A stretch of DNA of 64,000 bases, taken from a virus (Duplodnaviria; Heunggongvirae; Uroviricota; Caudoviricetes). The notes below the pieces were generated by a model. The model worked only from the letters and a program-made list of their open reading frames with translations, was not told the DNA's origin and did no database searches. A program made the translations under genes and the position numbers. Within the stretch, counting starts at the first letter, position 1, and each line of letters opens with the position of its first letter. The DNA lies in IMG/VR virus record IMGVR_UViG_3300028886_000029, positions 46,007 to 110,006 of that record. One strand, written 5' to 3'. Positions 32,693-62,024 of the stretch are shown piece by piece.

Positions 32693-32703
32693 CACGATTT
32701 TTG

Positions 32704-40131: not shown

Positions 40132-40170
40132 AAGATGAATAGATTTTTATTTTTTCTATTTATAAATAGT

Positions 40171-43843: not shown

Positions 43844-43860
43844 TACAACAACCGTGCCAA
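43844..43860 (-). promoter_or_regulatory. Sigma-54-like motif TTGGCACG-GTTG-TTGTA upstream of 42932..43792
   Basis: Minus strand reads TTTTGGCACGGTTGTTGTAAGAT, 52 nt upstream of the ATG; -24/-12 spacing as in TGGCACG-N4-TTGCW. Confidence 0.4.
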
Positions 43861-43863
43861 AAA

Positions 43864-44565
43864 TTAAAAATTTTGAATAAAATCATAAATTTTTTCCAAA
43901 GTTCCGCTCCACCTCATCCATTGTCTTGCGTTTTTTTCCAAAACCATCAGGTTTTCGTTCATATATATACGCTTATTAACCTCAATCATTACAGAACAAT
44001 ATGAGAAATTTTTTTCAGGTGTAATGGAATTAGAATAAGGTATATTTTCCTCAACTGAATAACCTTGCTTTTTAAATTTTTTTACAATACCATCAACAAG
44101 TTTCTTGTTATATGACCAGTCTTCATTATACCCAATGCAAATGTCATTGTTAGCCAAGTAACTTGGAAAAGAGTGACAATCAATAAGAACTGTATTTTCG
44201 TCCTTAATCGCTGTCTGAAGATTTGCCTGGTGTTCTTCCCAAAGTTCCATTATGTTTTTCTTTTGTTCTTCAGTCAAGTTACGTTTATAACCGTCAAATT
44301 CGGTATATATAATGCCCTGACCAATATTTTCCAAAGGGTCATTCTTAAGTTTTTCGACATCACAAACAAAGCGTGAGTAAGGAAAAACAATGGTTTCCAC
44401 GTTTTCTTTTCTTGACAGAGGGTTAAACAGCATATCAGTATACCAATCTGTCCATTTCTTAAGACAATCATCCATAAAATATGGGTTACATTGCCATTTA
44501 CCAAAGTTCTTGTCATACACACCGTTAATTGAACTATGTGGTATGTTCAAAACAATATTTCTCAT
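43864..44565 (-). CDS. N-formylglutamate amidohydrolase (FGase)-family protein
   Basis: LNIPHSSINGV at the N-terminus and VLIDCHSFPS resemble the FGase-family signatures (hIPHsG..iP, vDlHSm). Confidence 0.5.
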   Translation of the reverse strand: MRNIVLNIPHSSINGVYDKNFGKWQCNPYFMDDCLKKWTDWYTDMLFNPLSRKENVETIVFPYSRFVCDVEKLKNDPLENIGQGIIYTEFDGYKRNLTEEQKKNIMELWEEHQANLQTAIKDENTVLIDCHSFPSYLANNDICIGYNEDWSYNKKLVDGIVKKFKKQGYSVEENIPYSNSITPEKNFSYCSVMIEVNKRIYMNENLMVLEKNARQWMRWSGTLEKIYDFIQNF

Positions 44566-44571
44566 GTTATA

Positions 44572-45312
44572 TTATTTAAATTTACTACCAATTCTATCAT
44601 CAAATTTTTTTCTATATGCTCTTTGCGGGTTATTATATTTCGCTCTATGTCTTGACAATTCCAAACCTTCCACATCAGGACCTTTTCCATTTTGGAAATT
44701 TGATTTGTCTAACTGCCATTCTTCGTCAGCAGGTTGAAATTCAGGATTAAACTCATCATGCCATGTTTGTTTATTGAAACCGTTTCTCCTATATAGATTT
44801 CCAAGTTTGCCATGTCCTTCAGGGTCTTTTTCAGATGGAAAGCCCCTATAGTTGTCCATTTGTGTCGCACCTTGGTTTTTGGCAAATTGCAGAACCAAAT
44901 CACCAATTCCTTTTAAATCGGAGTTGTTAACAAAATTACACAAATCAATTTTTCCTGGTTCTATGTAATGTAAAGCAAAAGCGACATTATGTCCTTTCAA
45001 TGTGTATGTTATCCAATCATTACCTTTAATCTCATCTAAACCATGATATGTGAGATAACCTTTATATTTTTTAGGTGTCATATTAACAATTGAAAGAAAT
45101 CTCTCATAATTGTTCTTTTCCCAATTTTTAGATTTTAATATCCAGTTACTTTCTTCGTTTATTTGTGTGGATTTATTGTTTTGGTAAGTAATGGTGGAAA
45201 TTTTATCAAAAGTTAATTTCACAAAACAACCGCTATTTTCTTTTAAAATTTTCGCTAAAGAATCTGTAATTATTTTGTTTAATTGTTTTTCTGTTAGTAT
45301 AATGCGTTGCAT
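44572..45312 (-). CDS. Hypothetical protein with shared N-terminal motif (TEKQLNKIITDSLAKILKEN); possible GNAT-like C-terminal region
   Basis: KGIGDLVLQFAKNQGATQM...NLYRRNGF loosely resembles the GNAT motif A/B. Confidence 0.4.
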   Translation of the reverse strand: MQRIILTEKQLNKIITDSLAKILKENSGCFVKLTFDKISTITYQNNKSTQINEESNWILKSKNWEKNNYERFLSIVNMTPKKYKGYLTYHGLDEIKGNDWITYTLKGHNVAFALHYIEPGKIDLCNFVNNSDLKGIGDLVLQFAKNQGATQMDNYRGFPSEKDPEGHGKLGNLYRRNGFNKQTWHDEFNPEFQPADEEWQLDKSNFQNGKGPDVEGLELSRHRAKYNNPQRAYRKKFDDRIGSKFK

Positions 45313-45351
45313 TGTTTCGGTTTTTTTGTCGCTTATTTTTTAATAAATAGT

Positions 45352-46215
45352 TTAGACTTTAACAAAACTAAGTGCCCTATGCAACTTTTTAGTCACATCA
45401 TTAATAACTTGCCTAATCCTTTCCGATGTCAGTCCAAGTTCCTCACCGATTTCATAGTTATTATACTCTTTGTCATAACCAATGCCAAAGTACATTTTGA
45501 CTATTGTTCTATCTCTTTCATTAAGCATGGACAACAATTTGCTGACAAGTGTTTTGGTATATTCCTTGTCAATTGTCTCCTCATACTCATTATAACTTGC
45601 GGTTTTGTCAGTAAATGCTTTAGTGTCTTCCAAAGTGTTCTGGTCTTCGTCAATGTACTCATTAACTGACTCAGTTGTGATGTCAAACACATCACTCTGT
45701 TTGAGTATTGTGATGTCAAAATCTTTTTTCAACATATCAATTATCTCATCTTCGGTTGGATACCTGCCATTAAGACCAAAATACTTGTTTTTAACCTTGG
45801 TCATTTTGTTACCCAATTTAATGTTGTTTGTTCTTCTGACAAACATATTGGTGTTCATTATGTAATACTGAATACTTCTCCTGATGTACCAAACAGCATA
45901 TGACAAAAACCTTGTTCCCTTAGTAGTATCATATTTGTCAATATCATTTATGACTGACATAAGACCGAGGTTACCCTCGTCAATTAAATCCATGATGTTA
46001 TCGTTGTTGGCATACCTTTTCGCAATAGCCACAACAAATCTCTGATTACTGTTTATGAGTTTTTCTTTCGCCTCATTGTCCCCATTTTTTATTTTAAGTA
46101 TAAGGTCATACTCCTCCTCCGCTGAAAGTACGGGATATTTATTGATTTCCCTAAAATACCTTGCAAGTGTGTCACTCCTCTCAATAAGATTCCCTTTAAT
46201 AGTCTTAATGTCCAT
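45352..46215 (-). CDS. Sigma-70-family RNA polymerase sigma factor
   Basis: Region 2 (LINSNQRFVVAIAKRY...DLIDEGNLGLMSVINDID...FLSYAVWYIRRSI) and region 4 HTH (ERDRTIVKMYFGI...EIGEELGLTSERIRQV). Confidence 0.75.
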   Translation of the reverse strand: MDIKTIKGNLIERSDTLARYFREINKYPVLSAEEEYDLILKIKNGDNEAKEKLINSNQRFVVAIAKRYANNDNIMDLIDEGNLGLMSVINDIDKYDTTKGTRFLSYAVWYIRRSIQYYIMNTNMFVRRTNNIKLGNKMTKVKNKYFGLNGRYPTEDEIIDMLKKDFDITILKQSDVFDITTESVNEYIDEDQNTLEDTKAFTDKTASYNEYEETIDKEYTKTLVSKLLSMLNERDRTIVKMYFGIGYDKEYNNYEIGEELGLTSERIRQVINDVTKKLHRALSFVKV

Positions 46216-46233
46216 ATATAAAAATTTAAAAAA

Positions 46234-46593
46234 TTATTTACTTAAATTAAACAAAATTTTGCCATAAGAGGTTTGGCCTTCTCTGATGTAATTTCCATCT
46301 ATATTATATAAAATTTTACCATAAGGGTTTTGACCCTTTCTAATATATTTTCCATCTATATTATATAAAATTTTACCGTAAGAAGTCTGTCCCTCTCTAA
46401 TATATTTTCCGTCTATATTATACTCTATTTTTCCCCAAATTGTTTCACCTTTTCTAATAAAATTACGGTCAATCGTATAAACAATTTTACCATAAGGATT
46501 TTGACTTTCCCTTATCCAATGATAATTATTAGGGAAAAATAGAGATATAACAATTAAACTACCGCAAAAACTATACCAGCGCATCAAACTCAT
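46234..46593 (-). CDS. Secreted/membrane-anchored protein made of ~19-aa tandem repeats (YGKILYNIDGKYIREGQTS), MORN-like
   Basis: Hydrophobic N-terminus followed by 5 tandem repeats; the underlying DNA has ~57-bp tandem repeats. Confidence 0.5.
   Translation of the reverse strand: MSLMRWYSFCGSLIVISLFFPNNYHWIRESQNPYGKIVYTIDRNFIRKGETIWGKIEYNIDGKYIREGQTSYGKILYNIDGKYIRKGQNPYGKILYNIDGNYIREGQTSYGKILFNLSK
46254..46538. repeat. About 5 tandem copies of a 57-bp repeat (TTTTACCATAAGGGTTTTGACCCTTTCTAATATATTTTCCATCTATATTATATAAAA-like)
   Basis: Direct inspection; the copies diverge toward the 3' end of the block. Confidence 0.6.
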
Positions 46594-46870
46594 CCAAAAC
46601 TTTTTGCTTGTCTATTGACCACCTCTTACATTTTTTTGTGATGTCTTTCAGCGCAAGTGGTTTAAGTTCAACATTTTCTATTGCATAACCAGGTGGAACA
46701 TTCGCTTTAAGTTTTTCAACAGCATCACTTAAATTCTGTTCGTTAGCACAGAAATGTTCACCTTCACTTGTGCAATCACATGAAATACAGTTAATACACA
46801 TTTTCTTCAAATGGGATTCAGCATTAGGGCATTTTCCCTCAATTTTTTCACTTCCACAAATTTCACTCAT
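46571..46870 (-). CDS. Cys-rich small protein (possible zinc-binding)
   Basis: CPNAESHLKKMCINCISCDC...EHFC cysteine cluster. Confidence 0.4.
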   Translation of the reverse strand: MSEICGSEKIEGKCPNAESHLKKMCINCISCDCTSEGEHFCANEQNLSDAVEKLKANVPPGYAIENVELKPLALKDITKKCKRWSIDKQKVLDEFDALV

Positions 46871-47282
46871 GTTTATCTTCTTTTATTAAATTATTAAAAT
46901 CAAACTTTATTGGTTCTGTCTCAGCGATTTCTTTAACATACATCTCTTTTACCAATACTCTATTTAGTCCTTTTTGTTCTTGTGTTATCCTTCTGTTGAT
47001 ATTATCAACATGTTTTTTAATATCAAACAAAATGTCTCCCTTTTCGTCTTTTTCCTTGTCATATGTTTGAATCAGATATTCCACTTTTTTATATTCTAAC
47101 CTAAAAGATGTTAGTTCCGAATTATTATTGGTCAAACCATTAATTGTAAAACCAAAAACGAAAAAAGAGATAATACAAAAATACATTAAAAAAGGTATAG
47201 CACCGTCATTATCTTTACACACTTTGATTAGCCCCCAAAGGCAAAACAAAGCAAAAACAATTAAAATTATCAGTAATATCAT
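46863..47282 (-). CDS. Membrane protein (two N-terminal TM helices)
   Basis: MILLIILIVFALFCLWGLI...FLMYFCIISFFVFGFTI. Confidence 0.4.
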   Translation of the reverse strand: MILLIILIVFALFCLWGLIKVCKDNDGAIPFLMYFCIISFFVFGFTINGLTNNNSELTSFRLEYKKVEYLIQTYDKEKDEKGDILFDIKKHVDNINRRITQEQKGLNRVLVKEMYVKEIAETEPIKFDFNNLIKEDKHE

Positions 47283-47283
47283 G

Positions 47284-47799
47284 TTAGTTCACCACTTTTT
47301 TCCAAGAATAACTTTTATTGTCAAACACATACTCACCTGGTGTCAAACCACCCTTATTAACATATTCCAATATTAAAGACAATATGTTTTTCATGTTGGC
47401 AACAATATAAAGATATAACTCCCACCAGTGGTCTTCCAATTCCTTGGGATATTGCTTGCCCATGGGACTTTCCTCTGTGCCTTCAATAAAATCCTCATAA
47501 TGTCCAAGAATCATAGCCACATCTTCCATGACATATGTACCACCAAAAAGGTTCCATTGGTCAACACCCCACGCATGACACTCCTTCAAATCAGATATGG
47601 TTTTCATCTTGTCCCTTGCCCTAATCAGTTGGTCTCTTAACTGACCATACTTTTTCATGTTTTCAGGTGTGGACTCAATCTCTTCTATTGAATTGGTGAT
47701 GAACTCAGTGTTAAAATTCTCACCCATGTCAAACTCATCAAATTTAATCGCCTTGATTAATTTGATATGCTCATCTGTAAGTATTAGTTTTTGTCGCAT
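47284..47799 (-). CDS. Hypothetical protein
   Basis: 171-aa ORF; N-terminus LILTDEHIKLIKAI loosely resembles the shared motif. Confidence 0.45.
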   Translation of the reverse strand: MRQKLILTDEHIKLIKAIKFDEFDMGENFNTEFITNSIEEIESTPENMKKYGQLRDQLIRARDKMKTISDLKECHAWGVDQWNLFGGTYVMEDVAMILGHYEDFIEGTEESPMGKQYPKELEDHWWELYLYIVANMKNILSLILEYVNKGGLTPGEYVFDNKSYSWKKVVN

Positions 47800-47801
47800 T
47801 G

Positions 47802-47850
47802 CTTTTATTAGTTTTTATTGTTTTAGTTTTATTAGTTTTTATTGTTATTT
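47802..47850. repeat. Tandem duplication of a ~24-bp unit (TTTTATTAGTTTTTATTGTTTTAG) immediately upstream of 47284..47799
   Basis: TTTTATTAGTTTTTATTGTTTTAGTTTTATTAGTTTTTATTGTTATTTTTAG. Confidence 0.45.
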
Positions 47851-47859
47851 TTAGTACAT

Positions 47860-48063
47860 TCAAAAATCATGACAGAAAATTTCAGAATTGTCAAAAATTA
47901 TTTCTAATTTATATATCATTGACAAACTACAATGTTCCCTTGCCATGTGTTTTTCGGTTTCAAATTGAATATTATCAATTTCTTCGGCGTTCGAACCAAT
48001 ATAAGTCAATGTTTGGTCACTATAATAAGGGTCAACTGCGGTATATTTAACTATTCTCTTCAT
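47860..48063 (-). CDS. Small hypothetical protein
   Basis: 67-aa ORF, start adjacent to the stop of the ligase gene. Confidence 0.3.
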   Translation of the reverse strand: MKRIVKYTAVDPYYSDQTLTYIGSNAEEIDNIQFETEKHMAREHCSLSMIYKLEIIFDNSEIFCHDF

Positions 48064-49655
48064 TACGCTGTCTCCTCAATATCAACTTCACCTGCATCAT
48101 GTTGTGCACATTCAACTAATCCGTAGTGGAGATTAGTTTTAACTTTAAAAGCCTCAGACTTAGGGTCATCATCAATCCTAATGACAACACCCTCTCTTGG
48201 TGCCCTCATTGACTCATATTTCTCATAGTCCTTGGTCAATTTTGAAATCACTTTCTTACTTTCGCCTTTCTTTTTGGCATTGTCAAGAACAGCCTTAGCC
48301 GCAAGTGCTTCCTTTTCATACAAATGACACATAGGCTCTTTTTGCTCCATATAGAAATTGTCATCGTTGTGCAGTCTTGTAAGGAAATTGTCGTACCACA
48401 TGTCGTCAACCACAATGTCAGGATACAAATCACAAAGTTTACCGTGGTAAAGCACTTCAAGATTAAGAACCTTGTCACTAAGTTCAGGGTGTTCGGCAAC
48501 AAGGTTTCTTGTCCACTTGTCAACATCAAGCACATTCCATTCCTTAACATTACCATTGGCATCCGTCTCAGTTATACGATAAGGCATAAACTTCCAATGT
48601 CCAACCTCACAACCATAGTCATGACGTTTCTGTATCATCTTGTCCGACCCTTCAAGATAACCTGCAATCTCACCATACACAGTCATACCCTCTGAAAGAT
48701 AAGGTGAAAAATCCCTGTTCACACAACCCCAAATATCAACACCGTAGAAATCATTACTGTCCTTACCTGTTATATATCTGTTCTTAATTACAGACCTACT
48801 TGAATAAATGTTACCATATTCAGTTGTTTTTACATTCATACCGAAAAACTTCTTAACTCTTTCAAAAAAAGTAAGTTTTTTATTAACAAGAATATTGGAC
48901 AAAATTACTGATGTTCCATGGACCTTGACTGTTATGGTAACAATATCCTCCGGTGAAAGCAATCCCTTAATATTGGTTGAATCAATACGCTGTGTGTCAT
49001 AATGATAGGTGAATTGACCTTCGACCAGTTTATCAAACCTCTTAATTTTCTTCATCCTCTTATTAAAACCTTTCTGTCCTGTATTCTGTTCAGAAGTCTT
49101 AATTGGTGGAATATACTTTTTACAAAATTCATCATCACCAATATAATTAAATGAGGTTCCAACCATTTCCTCCCAATTAACATCAGCAAGGTCAGGATTA
49201 TAGTTGACAAGTGAGTTAACACCTGCGATAAAACCGTTGGAAACACAACCCCTAAGAGTGATAATCCTTACCCTGTTCCTTTTGTTAAAGTAACCGACTT
49301 GTGACTTAATTTCCTTGTAAAGTTCGTCAGCCTCATCGGTTTTTCCGGTGTTTTTGAGGTCATTGTATTTCGCCATCATAATACCAATTTCAGGAGCGTT
49401 AGCATTTTTCTCCCATTCACCAATCTCATAAAGATTGTTGGCCGACAAAAACTTTTCAGAAAGCGCGCTTTCCACAGGTACATAAACCACAATATCATTG
49501 GTTTTCATTGTGTTACCAATAACAATGTCAGCACCGTTAACAGTGGTTCTGAGAAGTCTGTCAGCACCCTCAATAGGGAACGTTTCACCAATACGGCAAA
49601 TGGTTGCCAGATAGTTAGGATTACTACCTTCCGATATTTTAAACAAATTTTTCAT
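48063..49655 (-). CDS. ATP-dependent RNA ligase, Rnl2-like nucleotidyltransferase domain with ~230-aa N-terminal extension
   Basis: Motif I KVHGTS (compare T4 Rnl2/REL1 KIHGTN) at about aa 236; downstream FYGVDIWG (III-like), EGMTVYGEI and EGVVIRIDD (IV-like), KVKTNLHY (V, KxK). Confidence 0.55.
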   Translation of the reverse strand: MKNLFKISEGSNPNYLATICRIGETFPIEGADRLLRTTVNGADIVIGNTMKTNDIVVYVPVESALSEKFLSANNLYEIGEWEKNANAPEIGIMMAKYNDLKNTGKTDEADELYKEIKSQVGYFNKRNRVRIITLRGCVSNGFIAGVNSLVNYNPDLADVNWEEMVGTSFNYIGDDEFCKKYIPPIKTSEQNTGQKGFNKRMKKIKRFDKLVEGQFTYHYDTQRIDSTNIKGLLSPEDIVTITVKVHGTSVILSNILVNKKLTFFERVKKFFGMNVKTTEYGNIYSSRSVIKNRYITGKDSNDFYGVDIWGCVNRDFSPYLSEGMTVYGEIAGYLEGSDKMIQKRHDYGCEVGHWKFMPYRITETDANGNVKEWNVLDVDKWTRNLVAEHPELSDKVLNLEVLYHGKLCDLYPDIVVDDMWYDNFLTRLHNDDNFYMEQKEPMCHLYEKEALAAKAVLDNAKKKGESKKVISKLTKDYEKYESMRAPREGVVIRIDDDPKSEAFKVKTNLHYGLVECAQHDAGEVDIEETA

Positions 49656-49682
49656 GTTTTATATTTTTTGCTGTTTTTATTT

Positions 49683-49697
49683 ACAAAAAACATGCCA
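49683..49697 (-). promoter_or_regulatory. Sigma-54-like motif TTGGCATG-TTTT-TTGTA upstream of the RNA ligase gene
   Basis: Minus strand: CCTTTGGCATGTTTTTTGTAAATAAAAACAGCAAAAAATATAAAAATG. Confidence 0.4.
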
Positions 49698-49806
49698 AAG
49701 GCATTTTATTTTTAGCAAAAATACAAAATAAAACTCAAAAAAACAACTATTTTATGTTCTTTTTCAAACCATTGGACTATTTATCATAGTAAAAATATAT
49801 TGTTTT

Positions 49807-50058
49807 ATGGCAAAAAAAATAATAATATCTGAATCAATGGCAAAAAGATTGGTATCTGAGGGTATCATAAATGAATCTGGTGTTGATGACATCCTTAAAA
49901 ACAGGGAATTTAAAAAAGAAGTCAAAGACATCACTCTTGATGCTGTCAAAAAAGATAAGGACATTGAAAAAGAGATTAAGAAAATTGTCGCCAAATCAGT
50001 TGAGAACCTATTCAAGACATTGTGGCAAAGAAGTCAAACTTGGAACAATAATATTTAA
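49807..50058 (+). CDS. Small hypothetical protein
   Basis: 83-aa ORF, Lys/Glu-rich. Confidence 0.35.
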   Translation: MAKKIIISESMAKRLVSEGIINESGVDDILKNREFKKEVKDITLDAVKKDKDIEKEIKKIVAKSVENLFKTLWQRSQTWNNNI

Positions 50059-50060
50059 TT

Positions 50061-51308
50061 ATGGAAAAGTTGTTAATAGAGACATATTATCCTGAGGACG
50101 AGATGACAAGATACGGTTTCATATCACATATGGAATCGTATATCAAACAACTCTTGACTGACCCCAAAACAGCCAAGGTTGACTCATATCTCACAAAACA
50201 CAACATTGATTCCCCCAAGGCGTTGTCTTTGTTACTTAAAAGAACAGACCCATCCGATGAGACAAGCGCGGTTCTTATCAGAACTGAGAAAATCAGACCT
50301 CAGAAACTGTCAGAGGAAGATATTAACAACGGCGTTAAACCCAAAGACAGATTTGTCATCAAATACAAGTTACCAAGGAAAGATTATATGAAAAAGATGA
50401 GAAACCTTTACATTAACGCTTTCGAATCACATATTATTGACGGTAACACTTTAAATGAGATGAACGCCAACACTCTTGACTCAAAAATCATAAAAAAAAC
50501 AAACAACAATAAAATTACCTATGAGTTTGGAAAAAACGGTTGGGGGTTGTCAGATGAACTTATCAAAATCGGAAAAGACATAAAGAAACTATCCAAAAAC
50601 AATAATGTTTATATTGACAAGACTAATATTGACACACTTGATGATGTCTATGATTTAACGGTGTCAACAGAACCTATAACGGAAGGAGCGTGGGGAACAG
50701 GAATATTACAAAATGACTCCGCACTTGATTACCAAAGTGCTTTTGGCATTGAAAGTCTCAAAAAAATGATGGCTGACATACAACAAGAACAGGACGCTAA
50801 TAATATTTGGGCTAAACTGGGTGTATTAATTGATTTTATTACGAAATATAAGGAAGATGAACTGATTTTTAGTGATGAGTGTAGTCAGGCAATTGATTTT
50901 GCGAAAGAACAGTTAAAAGGATTGTACCACAACAATGACTGGTTGAATCAATGGGATAACAAAAAAGAAATGAAGTCAACTTTGAAAAAAGCGTTCAATG
51001 ATTTGTCTGATATTAAATATAAAAAAGACATTATGCCCGTACAACAAGAGGACATGATGACAGAAGAGGATGGTGGTGGTGCCACATCCGCTGATGCCTC
51101 AGGTGCTTTTGTACAACCTCTCTTTGGTAAACCCATAAAAAGAAAAACGGTTTATTTAACGCAAGAGCAAGTTGACAAACTGAAAGAAGCGGTTGAGATG
51201 GATACGGCCTTCGGTGATTTTGGATATGACGCACCGCCTCTCAAAAGGAAAAAAGACCCTGCGTATGACCATAAGAACATGATTAAAAAAAGTATTGAAA
51301 ATGAATAA
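50061..51308 (+). CDS. Hypothetical protein (415 aa)
   Basis: Long ORF with no recognisable motif. Confidence 0.5.
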   Translation: MEKLLIETYYPEDEMTRYGFISHMESYIKQLLTDPKTAKVDSYLTKHNIDSPKALSLLLKRTDPSDETSAVLIRTEKIRPQKLSEEDINNGVKPKDRFVIKYKLPRKDYMKKMRNLYINAFESHIIDGNTLNEMNANTLDSKIIKKTNNNKITYEFGKNGWGLSDELIKIGKDIKKLSKNNNVYIDKTNIDTLDDVYDLTVSTEPITEGAWGTGILQNDSALDYQSAFGIESLKKMMADIQQEQDANNIWAKLGVLIDFITKYKEDELIFSDECSQAIDFAKEQLKGLYHNNDWLNQWDNKKEMKSTLKKAFNDLSDIKYKKDIMPVQQEDMMTEEDGGGATSADASGAFVQPLFGKPIKRKTVYLTQEQVDKLKEAVEMDTAFGDFGYDAPPLKRKKDPAYDHKNMIKKSIENE

Positions 51309-51947: not shown

Positions 51948-51962
51948 TAAAAATGTAATAAA

Positions 51963-52847: not shown

Positions 52848-52848
52848 T

Positions 52849-53785: not shown

Positions 53786-53786
53786 T

Positions 53787-54497: not shown

Positions 54498-54561
54498 GTG
54501 TAAACGAGTATACTGTTTTCCCCAAAATAATATATAGCATTTGTAGAGTCCCTTTTAAAAA

Positions 54562-54598
54562 TAAAGCCGTAGAATAAACATCTACGGCTTTTATTATT
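54562..54598. terminator. Terminator hairpin between convergent genes
   Basis: AAGCCGTAGAATAAACATCTACGGCTT followed by TTATTATT. Confidence 0.5.
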
Positions 54599-54612
54599 AA
54601 ATAGTAATATTT

Positions 54613-54960
54613 TTAATCAAACATAACATAGTAGTTTTTAAATCTATCAAATTCAGGTGAACCCGTTTCCCATCTTTCTTCGGAAATAACGATTTTAGCG
54701 ATTTCAAACAACTCTTCTTTGTTGTCAGAAACAATTATAACAGGATTACTTGAATTTGATATATAAGGAGCGTCAATAACACGAAATGCCCTTGATTCCC
54801 AAGAACCTGGTTCCATTGATTCATAACATTTCCAAAGTTCAAATGGTGGTTTACTAATAGGCAGTGTGACATCATTAAAAGAGTAAAATCTTACACCATA
54901 CTTACCAAAATTTTTTTCAAGATATTCTCTTGCAATTCTTCTTCTTTGTTCTTCTTTCAT
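54613..54960 (-). CDS. Hypothetical protein
   Basis: 115-aa ORF co-directional with and just downstream of the GmrSD-like gene. Confidence 0.4.
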   Translation of the reverse strand: MKEEQRRRIAREYLEKNFGKYGVRFYSFNDVTLPISKPPFELWKCYESMEPGSWESRAFRVIDAPYISNSSNPVIIVSDNKEELFEIAKIVISEERWETGSPEFDRFKNYYVMFD

Positions 54961-54974
54961 ATGCTTTATTGTTT

Positions 54975-56360
54975 TTAATTTTTGGTGGATTTTATCCTTT
55001 CAATAAGTTCATCTCGTTTCTGACGAATCTGTTCAGCATTATATGTCAGTTCTGCATGAAGAACCTTCTTGTGGTTGGTTTTGGAAATCATTACGCCGTT
55101 TGAAATTTCAGTTTTACCCCCATTTTCCCACGCAACAATGTGATGTGCATCCATATCTTCAAATTTATATTTACAACCATCAATGGGGTCAATTCCGCCC
55201 TGCATCTTATACATCTTCATCTTTTCGGGTACTTTGAAAGAACGGAGAACAAGCATACTGCGCTTCTCTATAGGGCAGCCCATCAATGCATACTCAAAAA
55301 CAGCTGAGTTAGCAGTAACTTCCTCATCCATAATATATTTGTCAACATCAGCATTGAGTTTCACGATGTCATATTCATTTTCACCATATGTTGCATAAAG
55401 ACGACCCCATTCAACGTTCTTTGCACATTTTTGGTCAAGATACTCAGAACAAAACATCTTTCTTGCCCAATCTATAACCGCCTTATAACGATTAACGAGG
55501 TCAGTTCCATTATCTTCAACATTTACAGATATTTCAGGGTTCGCATACATAGCCATATAAGACTCAATTCGTTCATCTTTTGTAAGGTCAGCATTAACAC
55601 CGAATACTTGCATAGATGCCCAATCGAGTGCCATTTCAAGAACATCCTGTCTTGTAGGGTCAAGAGGGAGGGAAAAATCACCATAAAAATATTCGCCACC
55701 CTTATAGAGAAAATCTGCATTATATTCAGTTGCAGTTGCAGATGCCTTGACTTTTGAGAAATACATCTTGATATGTTCACACCACATTCCATTGAAAGCA
55801 GCATTACGCAGTTCTTGTGGGGTAAGAACAGTTGTGGGTTGATTGATAGTCTTGAACCACTCTAGGAGTGCTTTTTCTGTACCTCTACAAATCTTGATAG
55901 ACGGTCGATACAGTTTAAACCTTCTCTGCATTTTATCAGAAAGTTCTTCAAACATCACATCTTTATCTTTTGTTCCATCAAACATTTTAATGGTATCTTG
56001 ACCGTTAATGAATGATAGAAGGGTCATAAGCCTCTGTTGGCCATCAATATTGATATACTTTTTACCCTCTTCAGTTTCACCAAAATAGATTGTACCTATT
56101 GGTTGACCGTTAACAACACTCCTCGCAAGAGCTGCCTTCCACACCTCATTATTTTCAACAACATAAGCTCTTTGAAATTTCGGACGAATATTGAGTTTGC
56201 CATTCCACGCAAAAACGCCTCCTTCAATGTTTTCGGAATTGTCAATGTACCCTTCTGCAAGTTCCTCAAGGGTAATGTCATTCCTATCTTCAATAGCAAC
56301 GGAATCAGTGTTAAAATCTTCATAAACATAAAAACCAATGTTTTTTCTTCTCTTTGTCAT
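54975..56360 (-). CDS. DUF262 (ParB-like NTPase, DGQQR) + C-terminal HNH/DUF1524 nuclease: GmrSD-family type IV (modification-dependent) restriction-like endonuclease
   Basis: INIDGQQRLMTL (DGQQR signature) near aa 110. C-terminal DAHHIVAWENGGKTEISNGVMISKTNHKK (His-Me finger HH...N...N.K). Confidence 0.7.
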   Translation of the reverse strand: MTKRRKNIGFYVYEDFNTDSVAIEDRNDITLEELAEGYIDNSENIEGGVFAWNGKLNIRPKFQRAYVVENNEVWKAALARSVVNGQPIGTIYFGETEEGKKYINIDGQQRLMTLLSFINGQDTIKMFDGTKDKDVMFEELSDKMQRRFKLYRPSIKICRGTEKALLEWFKTINQPTTVLTPQELRNAAFNGMWCEHIKMYFSKVKASATATEYNADFLYKGGEYFYGDFSLPLDPTRQDVLEMALDWASMQVFGVNADLTKDERIESYMAMYANPEISVNVEDNGTDLVNRYKAVIDWARKMFCSEYLDQKCAKNVEWGRLYATYGENEYDIVKLNADVDKYIMDEEVTANSAVFEYALMGCPIEKRSMLVLRSFKVPEKMKMYKMQGGIDPIDGCKYKFEDMDAHHIVAWENGGKTEISNGVMISKTNHKKVLHAELTYNAEQIRQKRDELIERIKSTKN

Positions 56361-56418
56361 AATAATAAATTTTAATTGTTAATATTGATAAAGTATATTG
56401 CAATTATCGTACCAAATT

Positions 56419-57681
56419 TTATGATTCCATCAGAGGTTTTACTTTTTCCTCTGTAGGGAGTTCTTTGACCTTACGAATGAGAAGCCTTGCAGTCATTCTT
56501 TTGCCATTTAGATATGGCCTATCATATTTTTCGTTACCTTCTATATATAGAGACTTCATATCTTCAGACTTTTCGGTAATTCCAATGACTTCAAATTGAT
56601 TGGGATTGTGTTTGCCAAAATAAGTAATAGGAACACCTATCACCCCATCATAGTCCTTCGGAATATCCTCAACCCTGCCAACCTCAATAGCATCATAGTT
56701 ATCGTATTTAGGATAGTCAGTAGGGTTGTACTTCTTTGTCAGGCCGATGAACGCCCTTCTTTTGCTATGCTCAAGGTTGGTAAACCAACAAGCTTGTGTA
56801 ACCCTCGCCATAACTTCTCCGCCAATCTCTACCCAACCAGTTCCTTCTTTCTTCGTCTTGACGATTTCTTCCTTGTACTCGTCAGTAATGTGGAAATACA
56901 TTTCTCCACCGAGAGGTTTGTAGCCGAGCCACATCTTATTGTCTTTAAGGTAAGGGAAAATCTCCTTATAGGTGATTGCGGAGTGGTTGCCGACAATGAT
57001 GAATTTCTTACCCATCGTCATAATCTGTTCCACAAACTGACGGAACAGACTGAACGGAGGATTCGTTACTACGATGTCGCAGTTCCTCATAATCTCCTTG
57101 CACTCGTCGCTATCAAACGAGCCGTTGCCCTTGAGGAAATAGGTATCAATGTCGCTTTCATCAACATATTCACTATCCTCTTTCTCTCCGTTGTATTCCC
57201 ACTTGATTCCGCACTTCTCAAAATCGTACTCCTTTACCACACCGACACCATTGGGATTCCATTGGGTACAGATAAGTTTCTTAACCCCAAGTTTATGAAA
57301 CTTGCAGATAAAATACCTGCCGAAATTGCTCTGTCCCTCATTGAACAACTTGTCGCAAGGGCAATAGATTACTTTACCCTTAAAGTGTTCTTCATAATGT
57401 TTGAGTTCATCCACGATGTCGGCAAGACGAGTGTAAAATTCGTCATTCTTTGCTTTCTTTGCCTTTGTAAGATTGGAGTTCCTTGTGCTCTTCTCCTCTA
57501 CTTCTTCTTCGGAAAAGATTTTCGCCCCTTCTTCTTTCTTCTTCGGAACAAATGTATCCTTCTTATAGTAGATGGTAGAATAACCCTTCACGGGGCGGAG
57601 TGCCCAATTACCCGTAAGAGTGTTGAAGAAGAGTTCAAATCCCTGCGGAACTTTGATGTTTGGGTTATTAAATGTTTTCAT
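56419..57681 (-). CDS. N6-adenine DNA methyltransferase (NPPF motif IV)
   Basis: CDIVVTNPPF catalytic motif IV. Upstream Gly-rich/acidic region consistent with AdoMet binding. 420 aa. Confidence 0.65.
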   Translation of the reverse strand: MKTFNNPNIKVPQGFELFFNTLTGNWALRPVKGYSTIYYKKDTFVPKKKEEGAKIFSEEEVEEKSTRNSNLTKAKKAKNDEFYTRLADIVDELKHYEEHFKGKVIYCPCDKLFNEGQSNFGRYFICKFHKLGVKKLICTQWNPNGVGVVKEYDFEKCGIKWEYNGEKEDSEYVDESDIDTYFLKGNGSFDSDECKEIMRNCDIVVTNPPFSLFRQFVEQIMTMGKKFIIVGNHSAITYKEIFPYLKDNKMWLGYKPLGGEMYFHITDEYKEEIVKTKKEGTGWVEIGGEVMARVTQACWFTNLEHSKRRAFIGLTKKYNPTDYPKYDNYDAIEVGRVEDIPKDYDGVIGVPITYFGKHNPNQFEVIGITEKSEDMKSLYIEGNEKYDRPYLNGKRMTARLLIRKVKELPTEEKVKPLMES

Positions 57682-57893
57682 TTTTGTTTAACATTTTTAG
57701 TATAATAATTTCAATAAAAAAAAAACGGAAAACAGTCAGTACCATAATGTGAAGGAGGGATACTATAACTGCAATCCGTTAGATTTCCATAATTCTTATT
57801 TTTATAGTCCTTCACCTCTATAAAAATACTATGTTTATATATAAATAGTATCTTTTTTACAAATATACAAAATAATTATTAATATTCCAAATT

Positions 57894-58181
57894 TTAACAG
57901 TCGATTAGTTCATCTTCATCACTTAGTTCATCTTCATCACTAATAAATAGTTGTACAAGCATATCTTCAATCATAAAATCATTAGGGTCAAACACCTCAT
58001 CAACAAAAGCCTCGTCCTCTTTACTGAAGTACTCTTTAGAAATAGTGATTGGGTAGTTTTCCAACATGTTCTTAACATCGTTTACAGTTGTTTTACTATC
58101 AAAATCATCTTTGATGAGATTGAAAGATAGGGTATTAAAATCAATACCAAAACCAAGTTCCAAAATGTCTTTAATTGTCAT
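57894..58181 (-). CDS. Small hypothetical protein
   Basis: 95-aa acidic ORF preceded by a sigma-54-like motif. Confidence 0.4.
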   Translation of the reverse strand: MTIKDILELGFGIDFNTLSFNLIKDDFDSKTTVNDVKNMLENYPITISKEYFSKEDEAFVDEVFDPNDFMIEDMLVQLFISDEDELSDEDELIDC

Positions 58182-58215
58182 AATTTATATTTTTTTTGTA
58201 AACACTTTCCATACT

Positions 58216-58232
58216 TACAAAATCCGTGCTAA
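58216..58232 (-). promoter_or_regulatory. Sigma-54-like motif (TTTAGCACG-GATT-TTGTA, imperfect -24) upstream of 57894..58181
   Basis: Minus strand GATTAGTTTAGCACGGATTTTGTAAGTAT, about 35 nt upstream of the ATG. Confidence 0.3.
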
Positions 58233-58233
58233 A

Positions 58234-58470
58234 CTAATCAATTTTCTTCAATTTTGCAATAACATCTTCAATTCGAATAGCAATTTTATCTTCATCACGA
58301 CTAAAAAGTTTGCGAAATTCTATCTCACCATCGTTACAAAGGTCTGCTGTTATCTCCTCGTCATAAATTGAACTTACAAGTTTTCCAAGTTCACCCAATG
58401 CGCCTGATAATTTGTTTTCATATTCAAGAACCTTATTATACACAGATATTAATCGCTTTTCCGTAACCAT
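58234..58470 (-). CDS. Small hypothetical protein
   Basis: 78-aa ORF. Confidence 0.4.
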   Translation of the reverse strand: MVTEKRLISVYNKVLEYENKLSGALGELGKLVSSIYDEEITADLCNDGEIEFRKLFSRDEDKIAIRIEDVIAKLKKID

Positions 58471-58507
58471 GTTTCCACATTATTTTTAAATAACACTTTT
58501 CTATACA

Positions 58508-58525
58508 TACAAAGTTCATGCCAAA
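58508..58525 (-). promoter_or_regulatory. Sigma-54-like motif TTGGCATG-AACT-TTGTA upstream of 58234..58470
   Basis: Minus strand GATTAGTTTGGCATGAACTTTGTATGTAT. The surrounding ~50 nt is about 80% identical to the 58200-58250 intergenic sequence. Confidence 0.4.
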
Positions 58526-58544
58526 CTAATCATTTTTGTGACAA

Positions 58545-58781
58545 TTACTCATATTTTTTTCTCATTTTCTCTACCCATTCAAGTGCTTCTTCCTTTGTCT
58601 CAAAGATTTCGTCATCAAGAACATCTTTTAACCATTCCTCTGTATTACAAAAAGGACATGGGTCATCACCACCAATGGTGTAGAAACCATTTTCATAAGA
58701 ATCCATGTCATACAGATAACCATCTATGCAATGGGCATCAGGATATGATGCGCCAAAATGCGGAAATTCAATATCACACAT
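58545..58781 (-). CDS. Small Cys-containing hypothetical protein
   Basis: 78-aa ORF. Confidence 0.35.
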   Translation of the reverse strand: MCDIEFPHFGASYPDAHCIDGYLYDMDSYENGFYTIGGDDPCPFCNTEEWLKDVLDDEIFETKEEALEWVEKMRKKYE

Positions 58782-58784
58782 ATT

Positions 58785-59192
58785 TTAAATCAAATTTTCT
58801 AAACAATATCTAATCGCTGCTTCACAAGCTTCCTCATAAGAAGCACCGTACATGCAAGCATTCAAACCAGGGCCTTCTTCTATTTCATGATTGTCATTTA
58901 TCTTAATAACAGATGCGACATATGTAAATCCAAGTCCACAAATATTTGCATAATTTGTCGTAATGACAATATGATGCATTTCCCTCAACCACTTCATTGC
59001 CATCTGGAGAGTTGGAATTATAGTGTCTTCTGTAGGAGTTATCCATTCCTCGTTTACTTCATATGTGTTTCCACCAAATACTTTTATTGAGGCATAACCC
59101 ATTATGTCAAACCCCTTTTCTTTAAGGAGTTTGGCTGTTTCGAAAGAAACGTAATCTTCTTCAATCATAGTCAAATCAAATTTTCTAAACAA
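58785..59192 (-). CDS. Hypothetical protein, paralog of 59171..59647
   Basis: Shared N-terminus MIEEDYVSFETAKLLKEKGF and C-terminus YEEACEAAIRYCLENLI with the adjacent gene. Confidence 0.45.
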   Translation of the reverse strand: MFRKFDLTMIEEDYVSFETAKLLKEKGFDIMGYASIKVFGGNTYEVNEEWITPTEDTIIPTLQMAMKWLREMHHIVITTNYANICGLGFTYVASVIKINDNHEIEEGPGLNACMYGASYEEACEAAIRYCLENLI

Positions 59193-59647
59193 TATCTAAT
59201 TGCCGCTTCACAGGCTTCCTCATAAGTTTGATAAAAAACCTCATCAACAGCATCTTGTAGCATCATTTCAAAATCATTGTCAGTTCTTTGAATTACAACA
59301 TAGTAACCTGTATGTCCTCCACAAGCCCAAGAATCAAGCATTACTTGAATATAGTAATGATGTATTTCCCTCAGCCATTTCATCGCCCTTTGAAGAGTAG
59401 GAGCAGCCCATGCCTTCGTGTCATCATCATTATTGTTACTACCGAAATCATAAAGATACCCACCTTCAACGTATTCAATTTCATTCTTATGACCTTTTGA
59501 TATTAGGTCATATTCTTCATCAACACTTAAAGGTACACCTTTATAATATACCGCGGTACCATAACTCTTATAACACCACCAACGTTTAAATCCTTTCTCT
59601 TTCAAGAGTTTGGCTATCTCAAAACTTACATAATCTTCTTCCATCAT
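59171..59647 (-). CDS. Hypothetical protein, paralog of 58785..59192
   Basis: MMEEDYVSFEIAKLLKEKGF ... YEEACEAAIRYCLENLI. Confidence 0.45.
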   Translation of the reverse strand: MMEEDYVSFEIAKLLKEKGFKRWWCYKSYGTAVYYKGVPLSVDEEYDLISKGHKNEIEYVEGGYLYDFGSNNNDDDTKAWAAPTLQRAMKWLREIHHYYIQVMLDSWACGGHTGYYVVIQRTDNDFEMMLQDAVDEVFYQTYEEACEAAIRYCLENLI

Positions 59648-59889
59648 TTTTGTTTTTTTATTCTATGATATTCTCCGTTTTTGGAAAAGCACATTATTCT
59701 ATCAAGATACATCTTGTGTTTCCTATTTTTACCACATACTATAATCATTTCATTGTGATGCTCAATAATTCTCCCTTTAAACCAAATAAATGGGGAACTG
59801 TCAACGACCTGACACCACTTTGTTGGCATTGCGAATTTAATTCTCAATCCAACTTTAACATCCTTATCTTTTAAATTTTTATTATTCAT
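59644..59889 (-). CDS. Small hypothetical protein preceded by a duplicated-start uORF
   Basis: 81-aa ORF; the first 10 codons are duplicated just upstream by a 32-bp tandem repeat. Confidence 0.4.
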   Translation of the reverse strand: MNNKNLKDKDVKVGLRIKFAMPTKWCQVVDSSPFIWFKGRIIEHHNEMIIVCGKNRKHKMYLDRIMCFSKNGEYHRIKKQK

Positions 59890-59922
59890 AAATCCTTATC
59901 TTTTAAATTTTTATTATTCATA
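59860..59922. repeat. Perfect tandem duplication of a 31-bp unit (ATCCTTATCTTTTAAATTTTTATTATTCATA) spanning the gene start
   Basis: Copies at 59860-59890 and 59892-59922. Creates the 11-codon uORF MNNKNLKDKDL (59886..59921, minus) whose TGA overlaps the main ATG. Confidence 0.6.
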
Positions 59923-60171
59923 ATAAGAATATCTGTCAAGAACAACATAAGGTTTATCAGTGTACATATTCTTTACTTCTTCAAACCTAGAAGTCTCATA
60001 AGCAAGTTCATCAACACTTACAGTACCATAATCAAGGTCATTATCTGTTAGAATGTCATGAATATGGGCAATCAAATCTTCCACACTCTCCGCACCAATA
60101 AGAACATAGTGCATCGCATAACCGGTGAAACAAATGTCCACACTAAATACCGGATAAAACTTTTTCTCCAT
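59914..60171 (-). CDS. Small hypothetical protein
   Basis: 85-aa ORF preceded by a sigma-54-like motif. Confidence 0.4.
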   Translation of the reverse strand: MEKKFYPVFSVDICFTGYAMHYVLIGAESVEDLIAHIHDILTDNDLDYGTVSVDELAYETSRFEEVKNMYTDKPYVVLDRYSYYE

Positions 60172-60209
60172 AATTTTCTTAGTTTTTAATTTATTGGTAG
60201 TTCACTATC

Positions 60210-60226
60210 TACAAAAAACGTGCCAA
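60210..60226 (-). promoter_or_regulatory. Sigma-54-like motif TTGGCACG-TTTT-TTGTA (perfect -24) upstream of 59914..60171
   Basis: Minus strand CATTTTGGCACGTTTTTTGTAGATAGTGAAC, 39 nt upstream of the ATG. Confidence 0.45.
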
Positions 60227-60247
60227 AATGAACAGTTGCCCCTAATT

Positions 60248-60676
60248 TTATTTTTCCCAAATTACTTCCACTGTTATTTCCCCATCACAGTCATCCCACT
60301 TGCATTGCTTGCAAATGTCAGGAAAATCGTTTGCTGTCTCAGGATACCACTCAGAAAGGATATTCCCAATCTCATACGGGTATATTTCCGCAACATGCAT
60401 CATCAAACAATTCATACTACCCATAAACCAAGCATGTTCCACATCAGGCTCATCATCAAAAGTAAAAAACATGACATTAGACCTAACATATGTGACAGTT
60501 AATTTTCTCCATGCCATTTTTTCACCGTCATAATGCCAAAACTTTCTTCCTACCTTGATGTATTGCTTGACAGCCTCATCCTGCTTACAAAATAATTCGT
60601 ATAGGCGAGTATCAAATGTAATATTGCTGTAATTGCGGTTTAGCAAGTCGAGTATTTGTTGTTCTATATCATCCAT
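60248..60676 (-). CDS. Hypothetical protein
   Basis: 142-aa ORF. Confidence 0.45.
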   Translation of the reverse strand: MDDIEQQILDLLNRNYSNITFDTRLYELFCKQDEAVKQYIKVGRKFWHYDGEKMAWRKLTVTYVRSNVMFFTFDDEPDVEHAWFMGSMNCLMMHVAEIYPYEIGNILSEWYPETANDFPDICKQCKWDDCDGEITVEVIWEK

Positions 60677-60685
60677 ACAGTTATG

Positions 60686-60874
60686 TTATTCACAAATTAT
60701 TCTGTCCACGGTAATCGTTGTATAATTGTTGAATTCTATCACGATTTCATCCGTACCCATTTCACAACCAGCACCTTCGTGAAATATCGCTTTTACTGCT
60801 TTGGCATCCAATTCGGTTTTCCAAATCATACCATCAAGTTCCTTAACACCATAAAATTTTTTCTCTTTTGCCAT
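60686..60874 (-). CDS. Small hypothetical protein
   Basis: 62-aa ORF. Confidence 0.3.
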   Translation of the reverse strand: MAKEKKFYGVKELDGMIWKTELDAKAVKAIFHEGAGCEMGTDEIVIEFNNYTTITVDRIICE

Positions 60875-60876
60875 AG

Positions 60877-61503
60877 TTATATTTTTTTTATTTGTGACTT
60901 TATATATAAACGTTGAAGAAATTTTACAAAATTTTTCTTTGTTTCACTACCTTCGTTACTGTTTTCAACAAGGAAAATAAGATTTCTAATCCTGTTTAGG
61001 TCATCCTCACTCCACTCATCATTTTCTTTCGGATATTCTAATCTAGTCCAAGCCACATTAAGCCAATTCCAAATTTCTTCTAACTCTTCTTTTGAATAAC
61101 CAAAAGTATTTTCAGAGTGCCATACTTCATCAATTATGCATTTAGTGCTCAGCAATAAATCTTTATCCTCCTCACCCCATTCTGTAGGTTTCTGCTCCAT
61201 GACATTGATGTGTTTTTTTAGCCAATTATCTATCTGATATTGTGTGATGCCGAAATGAGCAACGCCCTCCCTAATTGCATCGTCAGAGATAGTCGGTTTC
61301 TGCTCTTTCTGCTTTTTGAGCCAATCAAACATGGGTTGTGCCTTTTCATCATCGTAACAACACTTAATAGCATATGCAATGTCTCTTTTTATAATATCTT
61401 CCTTATACGTTTTAAGTTCAGGAATAAGAAACTCCAATGCTAATCTTTCTTTATCTGTTTGATAAATGTTACAAATTGTTTGTATCGCTTCTTCTCTTGT
61501 CAT
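60877..61503 (-). CDS. Hypothetical protein
   Basis: 208-aa ORF. Confidence 0.45.
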   Translation of the reverse strand: MTREEAIQTICNIYQTDKERLALEFLIPELKTYKEDIIKRDIAYAIKCCYDDEKAQPMFDWLKKQKEQKPTISDDAIREGVAHFGITQYQIDNWLKKHINVMEQKPTEWGEEDKDLLLSTKCIIDEVWHSENTFGYSKEELEEIWNWLNVAWTRLEYPKENDEWSEDDLNRIRNLIFLVENSNEGSETKKNFVKFLQRLYIKSQIKKI

Positions 61504-61522
61504 AATTATCTTGATTTAAAAA

Positions 61523-61801
61523 TTAAAATCCCCATTCAACAGACCAATATTCATATGGGTCCCAAATTTTATCAATGTCAAAACCATCTTCCTTTAGCCT
61601 TGATATTGTTTTAGGTGTTGCAACCCAATCAAAATTATCAGCATTATTTTTACCAGGAAGAAAAACATATTTATCTCCCGCAACCATTGCTTCCTTTATC
61701 CGTTTCTGTGCCTCTTCATAATTTCGCTCATTATCACCATTTGTGTAATAAGCATTCATCATTTCTTCTTTTGTCATAATCAATATCCCTCCCCAAAACA
61801 A
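61523..61801 (-). CDS. Hypothetical protein
   Basis: 92-aa ORF. Confidence 0.4.
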   Translation of the reverse strand: MFWGGILIMTKEEMMNAYYTNGDNERNYEEAQKRIKEAMVAGDKYVFLPGKNNADNFDWVATPKTISRLKEDGFDIDKIWDPYEYWSVEWGF

Positions 61802-61917
61802 ACCTCAGTTATCTTCTCTTCCCCAACAGTAAGCACAAGATAATACTTACCATCACGATAATCCCAAGACAATTTCAAATTTTCTTTGAGATATTTTTTA
61901 ATTTTATCTTCCATTTT
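61780..61917 (-). CDS. Small hypothetical protein (start moved to MEDKIKKYL; the longer track ORF 61780..62022 would read through its own promoter motif)
   Basis: The sigma-54-like motif at 61947-61963 lies inside the longer ORF; the shorter start leaves it 30 nt upstream. Confidence 0.35.
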   Translation of the reverse strand, partial: KMEDKIKKYLKENLKLSWDYRDGKYYLVLTVGEEKITEVCFGEGY

Positions 61918-61946
61918 GTTTAAAAGTTTTTTTGCTTGTTTAACCT

Positions 61947-61963
61947 TACAATTTTCGTGCCAA
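61947..61963 (-). promoter_or_regulatory. Sigma-54-like motif TTGGCACG-AAAA-TTGTA
   Basis: Minus strand TTTTTGGCACGAAAATTGTAAGG. Confidence 0.4.
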
Positions 61964-62024
61964 AAATCACTTAAGTACAAAAATCTTTTTACAAAAATAC
62001 AATAAAAAACAAAAATAAACAAAA

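Follow-up and report, generated by a model that had tools for sequence, protein, structure and literature searches.

A recurrent element matching sigma-54-type (-24/-12) promoters ahead of genes of a probable Bacteroidales jumbo phage

A 64,000-nt stretch of a tailed-phage genome (Caudoviricetes; IMG/VR record IMGVR_UViG_3300028886_000029, positions 46,007 to 110,006), referred to below as the window, carries eight intergenic copies of an element with the sequence and spacing of a sigma-54-class (-24/-12) promoter. The best-supported reading, which we consider reasonably probable, is that these sites are promoters read by the sigma-54 (RpoN) RNA polymerase of the host. It builds on what was observed: the motif and its statistics, where the copies lie, how they are conserved, and their identity with a sigma-54 promoter of proven function.

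The window was scanned for TTGGCAYG-N4-TTGTA, of which a sequence-only reading had reported six copies. Five exact matches were found, all on the minus strand (43844, 49682, 58508, 60210, and 61947; the second had been placed at 49683), compared with 0.01 expected from 100 dinucleotide-preserving shuffles, indicating that the motif is real and far above chance. The sixth site, 58216, reads TTAGCACG, with the first G of the GG pair replaced by A; it was recovered by a mismatch-tolerant scan together with two sites that had been overlooked, 56399 (minus) and 32689 (plus), giving a total of eight. To avoid circularity, a position weight matrix (PWM) was trained on 55 sites, all from other phage contigs and none from the window. 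The eight window sites scored 19.8-27.4 bits with this matrix, the next best position scored 12.2 bits, and mononucleotide shuffles yielded 0-1 matches at ≥14 bits. All eight sites were intergenic, in a window of which 7.5% is intergenic, and all pointed toward the next gene, whose ATG lay 27-52 nt from the -12 base. The sites are as follows (aa, amino acids; ORF, open reading frame).

61947..61963, minus: -24/-12 site TTGGCACGAAAATTGTA, exact match, PWM 21.0 bits, 33 nt to ATG 61914 (44-aa ORF).
60210..60226, minus: -24/-12 site TTGGCACGTTTTTTGTA, exact match, PWM 27.4 bits (top score), 39 nt to ATG 60171.
58508..58524, minus: -24/-12 site TTGGCATGAACTTTGTA, exact match, PWM 20.0 bits, 38 nt to ATG 58470 (78-aa ORF).
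58216..58232, minus: weaker -24/-12 site TTAGCACGGATTTTGTA, one mismatch, PWM 19.8 bits, 35 nt to ATG 58181 (95-aa ORF).
56399..56415, minus: -24/-12 site TTGGTACGATAATTGCA, canonical GC at -12, PWM 23.5 bits, 39 nt to ATG 56360.
49682..49698, minus: -24/-12 site TTGGCATGTTTTTTGTA, exact match, PWM 20.6 bits, 27 nt to ATG 49655.
43844..43860, minus: -24/-12 site TTGGCACGGTTGTTGTA, exact match, PWM 25.1 bits, 52 nt to ATG 43792.
32689..32705, plus: -24/-12 site TCGGCACGATTTTTGTA, found by the mismatch scan, PWM 22.7 bits, 31 nt to ATG 32736.

Sigma-54 promoters are marked by a GG and a G(C), both conserved and separated by exactly ten bases, within TGGCAC-N5-TTGCW. Each of the eight sites fits TxGCAC/TGGYAY-N5-TTG(T/C)A with constant spacing. 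The GG pair is kept in seven (58216 has AG), and the -12 base is T in seven and C in one. The extended consensus derived from relatives, A-g-TTTGGCAC(G/A)aT(t/a)TTTG(T/C)A, in which GG and TTG are invariant and the spacing is constant, agrees with the Barrios-type sigma-54 consensus YTGGCACGrNNNTTGCW. The Escherichia coli pspA promoter (TTGGCACGCAAATTGTA), which is served by sigma-54 and PspF, has an identical core, TTGGCACG-N4-TTGTA with the spacer CAAA, and scored 20.1 bits with the phage matrix, inside the range of the window sites. The proposed sigma-54 sequence and exact geometry were thus borne out by both the consensus and the pspA match. The accompanying claims had to be revised. A uniform C-to-T change at -12 had been described as a departure from sigma-54 promoters, and the motif had been assigned to minus-strand genes alone; however, 56399 has the canonical GC and 32689 lies on the plus strand ahead of the gene at 32736, so the -12 change is not uniform and the motif is not restricted to the minus strand. 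The T itself is present at pspA, and relatives mix the two forms (TTGT:TTGC, 37:18 among the PWM training sites; TTGC in five of six sites of the GC-rich relative L238).

The same geometry bears on the sigma-70 family. TGGCAC and TTG(T/C) are separated by 5 nt in every site, whereas sigma-70-type hexamers need a spacing of 16-19 bp, and nothing was conserved 17 bp 3' of TTGGCA across the sites. The 5-nt gap means that the sites cannot be sigma-70-family promoters, whether of the -35/-10 or of the Bacteroidetes -33/-7 type, and the suggestion that the sigma-70-family factor encoded in the window reads them is unlikely because the conserved blocks stand too close together. A scan of the window for E. 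coli-type -35/-10 promoters barely exceeded shuffles and was uninformative. Four large IMG/VR contigs (L116, L083, L107, and L028) keep a conserved tAtTATTGtAGTG block about 2-14 nt past TTG(T/C)A, possibly across the start site, and a AACCAATTAAAA block nearer the ATG; in the window sites, a faint AGTG is all that is seen.

The genes behind the sites are varied. The 61947 site is the first putative promoter of a small-gene cluster and is present also in the strain variants L233 and L234, and the 60210 site stands at the head of a gene run from 59914-60171 through 58545-58781. The 56399 site precedes a GmrSD_N plus HNH protein (54975-56360; Pfam), and the 43844 site precedes a DUF932 protein (42932-43792; Pfam) and its downstream genes. 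On the plus strand, the 32689 site precedes a 74-aa ORF followed by an HD/polynucleotide-kinase gene (32911-34164; Pfam/PHROG). The 49682 site heads a same-strand run that includes the RNA ligase (48063-49655) and, downstream, the phage sigma gene (45352-46215), and continues to 43864. As had been proposed, it is plausible that the motif-bearing genes form a distinct temporal class.

Several local features accompany these genes. A hairpin, ATGCC-TTT-GGCAT, at 49692-49704 overlaps the -24 element of the 49682 site; it has T runs on both strands, was flagged as terminator-like in both orientations, and is unique to that site. In the small-gene cluster, a stretch of about 30 nt, ATGAATAATAAAAATTTAAAAGATAAGGAT, is duplicated in tandem at about 59860-59925 (minus), from the end of gene 59914-60171 to the start of 59644-59889. 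The adjacent small genes 58785-59192 and 59171-59647 (minus) are paralogous, both beginning ..EEDYVSFE.AKLLKEKGF, and L105 and the 217-kb relative L035 contain homologs.

Conservation in related phages, which had been put forward as a check, was observed. The motif is kept ahead of the RNA-ligase ortholog in L001 (96% aa identity) and L002 (67% aa identity), where the flanking intergenic DNA has diverged. Upstream of DUF932 orthologs we found the motif alone, the motif together with a sigma-A box, or a sigma-A box in its place; this alternation is expected if the two are interchangeable promoters. The strain variant L233 (11600-19000; ENA ERZ27256887 k141_2525523; corresponding to window positions ~58500-60200) has a much longer small-gene cluster with three extra -24/-12 sites (12984, 15612, and 17525), each ahead of a gene. 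Gene cassettes appear to come and go with their own promoter. The 10-kb left flank contained no -24/-12 sites.

The consensus for sigma-A boxes, TANNTTTGY, is that of PMC12632263. Ten Bacteroidetes-type TAnnTTTG boxes were present in the window compared with 1.4 expected, and they form a set distinct from the -24/-12 sites: seven of the eight sites lack TAnnTTTG, and only 32689 overlaps one. In a Bacteroidetes sigma-A promoter (-33/-7), such a box precedes the start site by about 5-7 nt, and a TTTG lies about 19-21 nt farther upstream. These boxes had been thought to be limited to plus-strand genes, which did not hold, as they occur also on the minus strand at 1598, 57855, and 61987. Four boxes stand in tandem with, or overlap, another promoter-like motif, and one terminator-like hairpin lies upstream of such a pair.

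61992..61999, minus: sigma-A type -7 box TATTTTTG, ~30 nt upstream of the 61947 site, putative tandem promoter.
49716..49723, minus: sigma-A type -7 box TATTTTTG, ~18 nt upstream of the 49682 site, putative tandem promoter.
32704-32711, plus: sigma-A type box TAtaTTTG, overlapping the -12 end of the 32689 site.
57855-57867, minus: sigma-A box paired with a ACTATTTAT motif (described below) at 57841-57849, mixed-class tandem.
62022..62057, minus: strong intrinsic-terminator-like hairpin, 16-pair stem followed by a T tract.

At 32689, the predicted start points of the two promoter classes nearly coincide. The tandem or overlapping arrangement of motifs of different classes suggests that these operons can be read by two holoenzymes. 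Judging from its terminator-like sequence, the hairpin at 62022..62057 would close the upstream gene 62081-63910 and insulate the promoter pair 61999/61963.

The window encodes giant proteins with BACON and GH2 domains, an amidase, TnpB, an RNA ligase, an HD/polynucleotide kinase, an RlaP nucleotidyltransferase, and an EcoRI-like methylase. This gene content, together with a sigma factor lacking region 1.1 and the TAnnTTTG boxes, suggests a Bacteroidales phage, probably a large phage of gut or rumen Bacteroidales with a genome of about 260 kb. The exact sigma protein of the window is encoded on a 262,580-bp metagenomic scaffold, and its homologs form a phage-specific clade on contigs of 200-363 kb, implying that the window covers about one quarter of a jumbo-phage genome. 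A megablast search of 43-63 kb against GenBank phages gave no match, so no annotated relative was available for comparison. That 45352-46215 encodes a sigma-70-family factor, as the sequence-only reading had stated, was confirmed by Pfam and PHROG matches and by PDB matches to SigA/RpoS.

45352..46215, minus: sigma-70-family factor, 287 aa, with regions 1.2, 2, and 4 and no region 1.1.

The primary sigma factor of Bacteroides likewise lacks region 1.1 (PMC12632263). A more likely candidate for the target of the phage sigma factor is a third motif, ACTATTTAT(A). It has 12 exact matches in the window compared with 1.5 expected, and eight of the 12 copies lie 20-45 nt ahead of start codons.

5920-5928, 6234-6242, 13546-13554, 25307-25315, 40162-40170, 45343-45351, and 57841-57849, minus: ACTATTTAT(A).
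49776-49784, plus: ACTATTTAT(A).

Among the genes that these copies precede are those for the amidase, TnpB, and the methylase, the operon of the BACON giant proteins, the ORF that follows the sigma gene, and, on the plus strand, the operon at 49807; the copy at 45351 lies inside the gene run headed by the 49682 site. The motif is conserved ahead of structural genes in the sigma-bearing relatives L237, L238, and L002, and in L237 it was present where no -24/-12 sites were seen. From this distribution, ACTATTTAT(A) is probably a late promoter class read by the phage sigma factor, which it suits more plausibly than the -24/-12 sites do. The TnpB gene, 38971-40131 (minus), is of the IS605 type (OrfB_IS605 plus a Cas12f1-like TNB domain) and has a ACTATTTATA motif upstream at 40170; L240 likewise has a TnpB-like gene close to its sigma homolog.

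We then considered how widely the -24/-12 element occurs and which polymerase could read it. Fourteen sites were found in 8.4 kb of a 302-kb contig, seven in 7.8 kb of a 361-kb contig, and six in 20 kb of L238. The element is also present in phi29-like contigs of IMG/VR sample 3300045988 (L068, L124, L021, L052, and L101). L068 (11,689 bp; also L124) is a complete phi29-like podovirus genome with 284-bp perfect terminal repeats and genes for a type-B DNA polymerase, a gp16 ATPase, a connector, and a phi29-type capsid protein. Each of its terminal repeats carries four tandem, inward-pointing TGGCACGGTTTTTGC/GT sites, and similar arrays of two or three sites are present at both ends of L021 and L101. 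No sigma gene and no Sigma54_activat or AAA+ activator gene was found among the ten largest ORFs of L068, and there is no room for sigma-54 or an activator in such 11-kb phages. The sharing of one motif by unrelated phages, and its presence in 11-kb genomes lacking both proteins, point to a reader supplied by the host. Canonical RpoN (ARRTVAKYR box) is encoded by at least 569 genomes, of which the 80 listed belong almost entirely to Alistipes, Rikenellaceae, or other Bacteroidales. Among 2.9 million viral contigs (IMG/VR), patterns for the RpoN box and core retrieved nine sigma-54 genes, none on a contig longer than 53 kb; the RpoN gene on one viral contig was identical to that of Alistipes putredinis. 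PHROGs contained no RpoN family. Candidate sigma-54 genes in INPHARED/GenBank phages were discarded, since the records concerned were all unverified, mislabelled, or fragmented and had genes of host type flanking the match.

A sigma-54 promoter also needs an activator, and the AAA+ ATPase at 27431-28594 had been named as a possible one on account of a QPAFTTF segment. This ORF was rejected as a bacterial enhancer-binding protein (bEBP): it had no Sigma54_activat (PF00158) match at E ≤ 0.01, QPAFTTF failed to align with GAFTGA, and its nearest solved relatives were AFG2 and the proteasome Rpt ATPases, placing it in the classical AAA clade. In BLASTP and hhalign comparisons with bEBPs, the Walker A motif aligned alone, with 24% probability. 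A GAFTGA scan of viral sequences identified PHROG 7998 ("unknown function"), a widespread family of 287-288 aa consisting of a bare Sigma54_activat domain with no receiver and no helix-turn-helix. It is encoded in L324 (2942-3808, plus), L333 (2122-2985, minus), and about 35 more IMG/VR contigs of 47-56 kb (L352-L431), adjoining exonuclease, Sak4, and helicase genes of phage recombination. The inspected loci had canonical TTGGCA(C/T)G-N4-TTGC sites nearby, in L333 one directly after the gene. Neither the window nor 1.3 Mb of related loci contained a homolog of the family, and the best 80 of about 325 matches to bEBP genes on viral contigs all lay on contigs shorter than 90 kb.

If the sites are sigma-54 promoters, host RNA polymerase carrying host RpoN would bind TGGCAC (-24)-N5-TTG(T/C) (-12), and we infer that initiation would occur about 12 nt downstream of the -12 element, giving leaders of roughly 15-40 nt. 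The genes served would be the small-gene cassettes, GmrSD/HNH, DUF932, RNA repair, and the operon containing the phage's own sigma gene. At operon heads, where a -24/-12 site stands in tandem with a host sigma-A box, it would offer a second route into the operon; inside operons, a lone site would act as an internal promoter and as the sole one for internal cassettes. Opening of these promoters would need an ATP-driven activator. Because none is encoded in the window and no shared enhancer was found, the activator would come from the host, as an enhancer-binding protein switched on by infection stress, or from elsewhere in the ~260-kb genome as a phage factor, and it would presumably act without a dedicated upstream site.

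Several points weigh against this reading. Canonical sigma-54 promoters are strictly activator-dependent, and their activators are usually bound 80-150 bp upstream; at least eight such promoters, some just ~290 bp apart, would be unusual. No sigma-54 or enhancer-binding protein was identified by Pfam among the ~80 ORFs of the window, and tblastn of the window and ~1.3 Mb of related loci gave no sigma-54, bEBP, or PspF-like match. An enhancer-like element had been suggested as a further check, and no k-mer common to the sites was found within 200 nt upstream. About three quarters of the genome lies beyond the window. RpoN was found in Bacteroidales in general rather than in this phage's particular host, and T at -12, the base in all but one of the eight sites, is uncommon in bacterial sigma-54 promoters, though functional at pspA. 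Activators without a DNA-binding domain do exist, so a missing enhancer does not exclude membership in the sigma-54 class.

Alternatively, the promoters could depend on a factor specified by the phage whose specificity copies that of sigma-54 or has converged on it. Candidates would be a sigma-54-like protein that has diverged, a specificity factor of another kind encoded beyond the window, or the 287-aa sigma factor. The phage does carry its own sigma, sigma homologs and the motif occur together in the window, the 217-kb contig (L024, L035), and L238, and some 200 kb of genome beyond the window could hold another candidate; a reader needing no activator would also explain why neither activator nor enhancer was found. 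We nevertheless consider this unlikely. Viral sigma-54 genes are as rare as described above and are confined to contigs of at most 53 kb, with no corresponding PHROGs family, and sigma-70 regions 2 and 4 call for elements ~17-19 bp apart, not 5 nt. Moreover, 14-21 kb of the sigma-bearing relatives L237, L239, and L240 contained no such sites (L237 has ACTATTTAT), whereas the motif is present in 11-kb phi29-like phages that have no sigma gene.

We give still less credence to the idea that the sites are not promoters at all, being instead operators bound by a regulatory protein, or signals acting at the RNA level (in processing or translational control) within the leaders of upstream sigma-A transcripts. 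The 49682 and 61947 motifs do lie just 3' of a sigma-A box and would fall inside the leader of that transcript, and a small hairpin overlaps the former at 49692-49704; however, five of the eight sites have no upstream sigma-A box, no hairpin common to the sites was apparent in their flanking sequences, and no Rfam family matched them. The motif is asymmetric, whereas most operators are not, and it alternates with a sigma-A promoter at DUF932 orthologs. Its 17-nt match to a proven sigma-54 promoter would have to be a coincidence repeated in unrelated phage lineages. The least probable account, in our view, is that host sigma-54 holoenzyme binds the sites and stays silent, the closed complexes serving either as roadblocks to modulate read-through from promoters upstream or as a sink titrating sigma-54. 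One study (PMC4591121) describes binding of promoter DNA by inactive sigma-54 holoenzyme and many conserved non-productive sites in E. coli, which would fit this account, as would the fact that no activator or enhancer was found. Against it stand the promoter-like position and orientation of every site, the narrow range of distances to the start codon, the new gene cassettes that bring their own copy, and the phi29-like arrays, which point inward from the genome ends with no other evident promoter ahead.

To our knowledge, the phage transcription programmes described so far rely on host sigma-70-type holoenzyme, phage sigma-70-family factors, or phage-encoded polymerases. The literature searched contained no description of a sigma-54-type phage promoter class, and a 2026 review of jumbo phages reports sigma-70-like homologs only. 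What would be new is therefore the setting, a dense class of sigma-54-type promoters on phage genomes, as the element itself conforms at the sequence level. More tentatively, unrelated Bacteroidales phages, jumbo phages of ~200-360 kb and 11-kb phi29-like podoviruses alike, might use sigma-54 promoters as a main class for their own genes while encoding neither sigma-54 nor a recognisable AAA+ activator. Because DNA opening by sigma-54 polymerase requires an ATP-driven activator, such a phage would either tap host signalling at infection or bring a new trigger. If this is true, infection itself would activate a host enhancer-binding protein, an exploited stress sensor, or there would be a new activator or activator bypass for sigma-54 polymerase. 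Either answer would be informative about the mechanism of sigma-54, about gene scheduling in the jumbo phages that infect Bacteroidales of gut and rumen, and for predicting promoters in phage metagenomes.

The window sites can be compared with several known systems. The pspA promoter has upstream PspF-binding sites and an IHF site, whereas the phage sites have no common upstream element and no cognate activator encoded nearby. In the phylum of the presumed host, typical -24/-12 elements are known: in Flavobacterium psychrophilum, sigma-54 promoters of this form were mapped as motif SM4, including those of groESL and envelope-stress genes, and the genome encodes one sigma-54 and three PF00158 activators, with a regulon of chaperones, envelope stress, and gliding (PMC9723704). 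Those Bacteroidota promoters are chromosomal, whereas the phage sites are dense, lie on a phage genome, and mostly have TTGT at -12.

Among phages, T4 late promoters (gp55, gp33, and the gp45 sliding clamp) open by energy-dependent, enhancer-like activation and not by spontaneous isomerisation. They resemble the sigma-54-class sites in being a phage promoter class with energy-dependent activation, a functional likeness and not homology, and they differ in using their own sigma-70-related gp55 and a single TATAAATA element. By analogy, the counterpart of T4 late promoters in the window is more likely the ACTATTTAT(A) class. Among mobile elements, RteB of the Bacteroides conjugative transposon CTnDOT is an NtrC-type, sigma-54-dependent activator; in contrast to a phage-wide promoter class, CTnDOT is a conjugative element with one regulated step. 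In B. thetaiotaomicron, a sigma-54-dependent Fis-family regulator lies beside tra genes (PMC10434189). The phages encoding PHROG 7998 belong to another group, with contigs of ~52 kb (about 48-56 kb), and resemble the present one in that their genomes evidently engage sigma-54, suggesting from their gene content and nearby sites that phages can exploit sigma-54 and encode enhancer-binding factors of their own.

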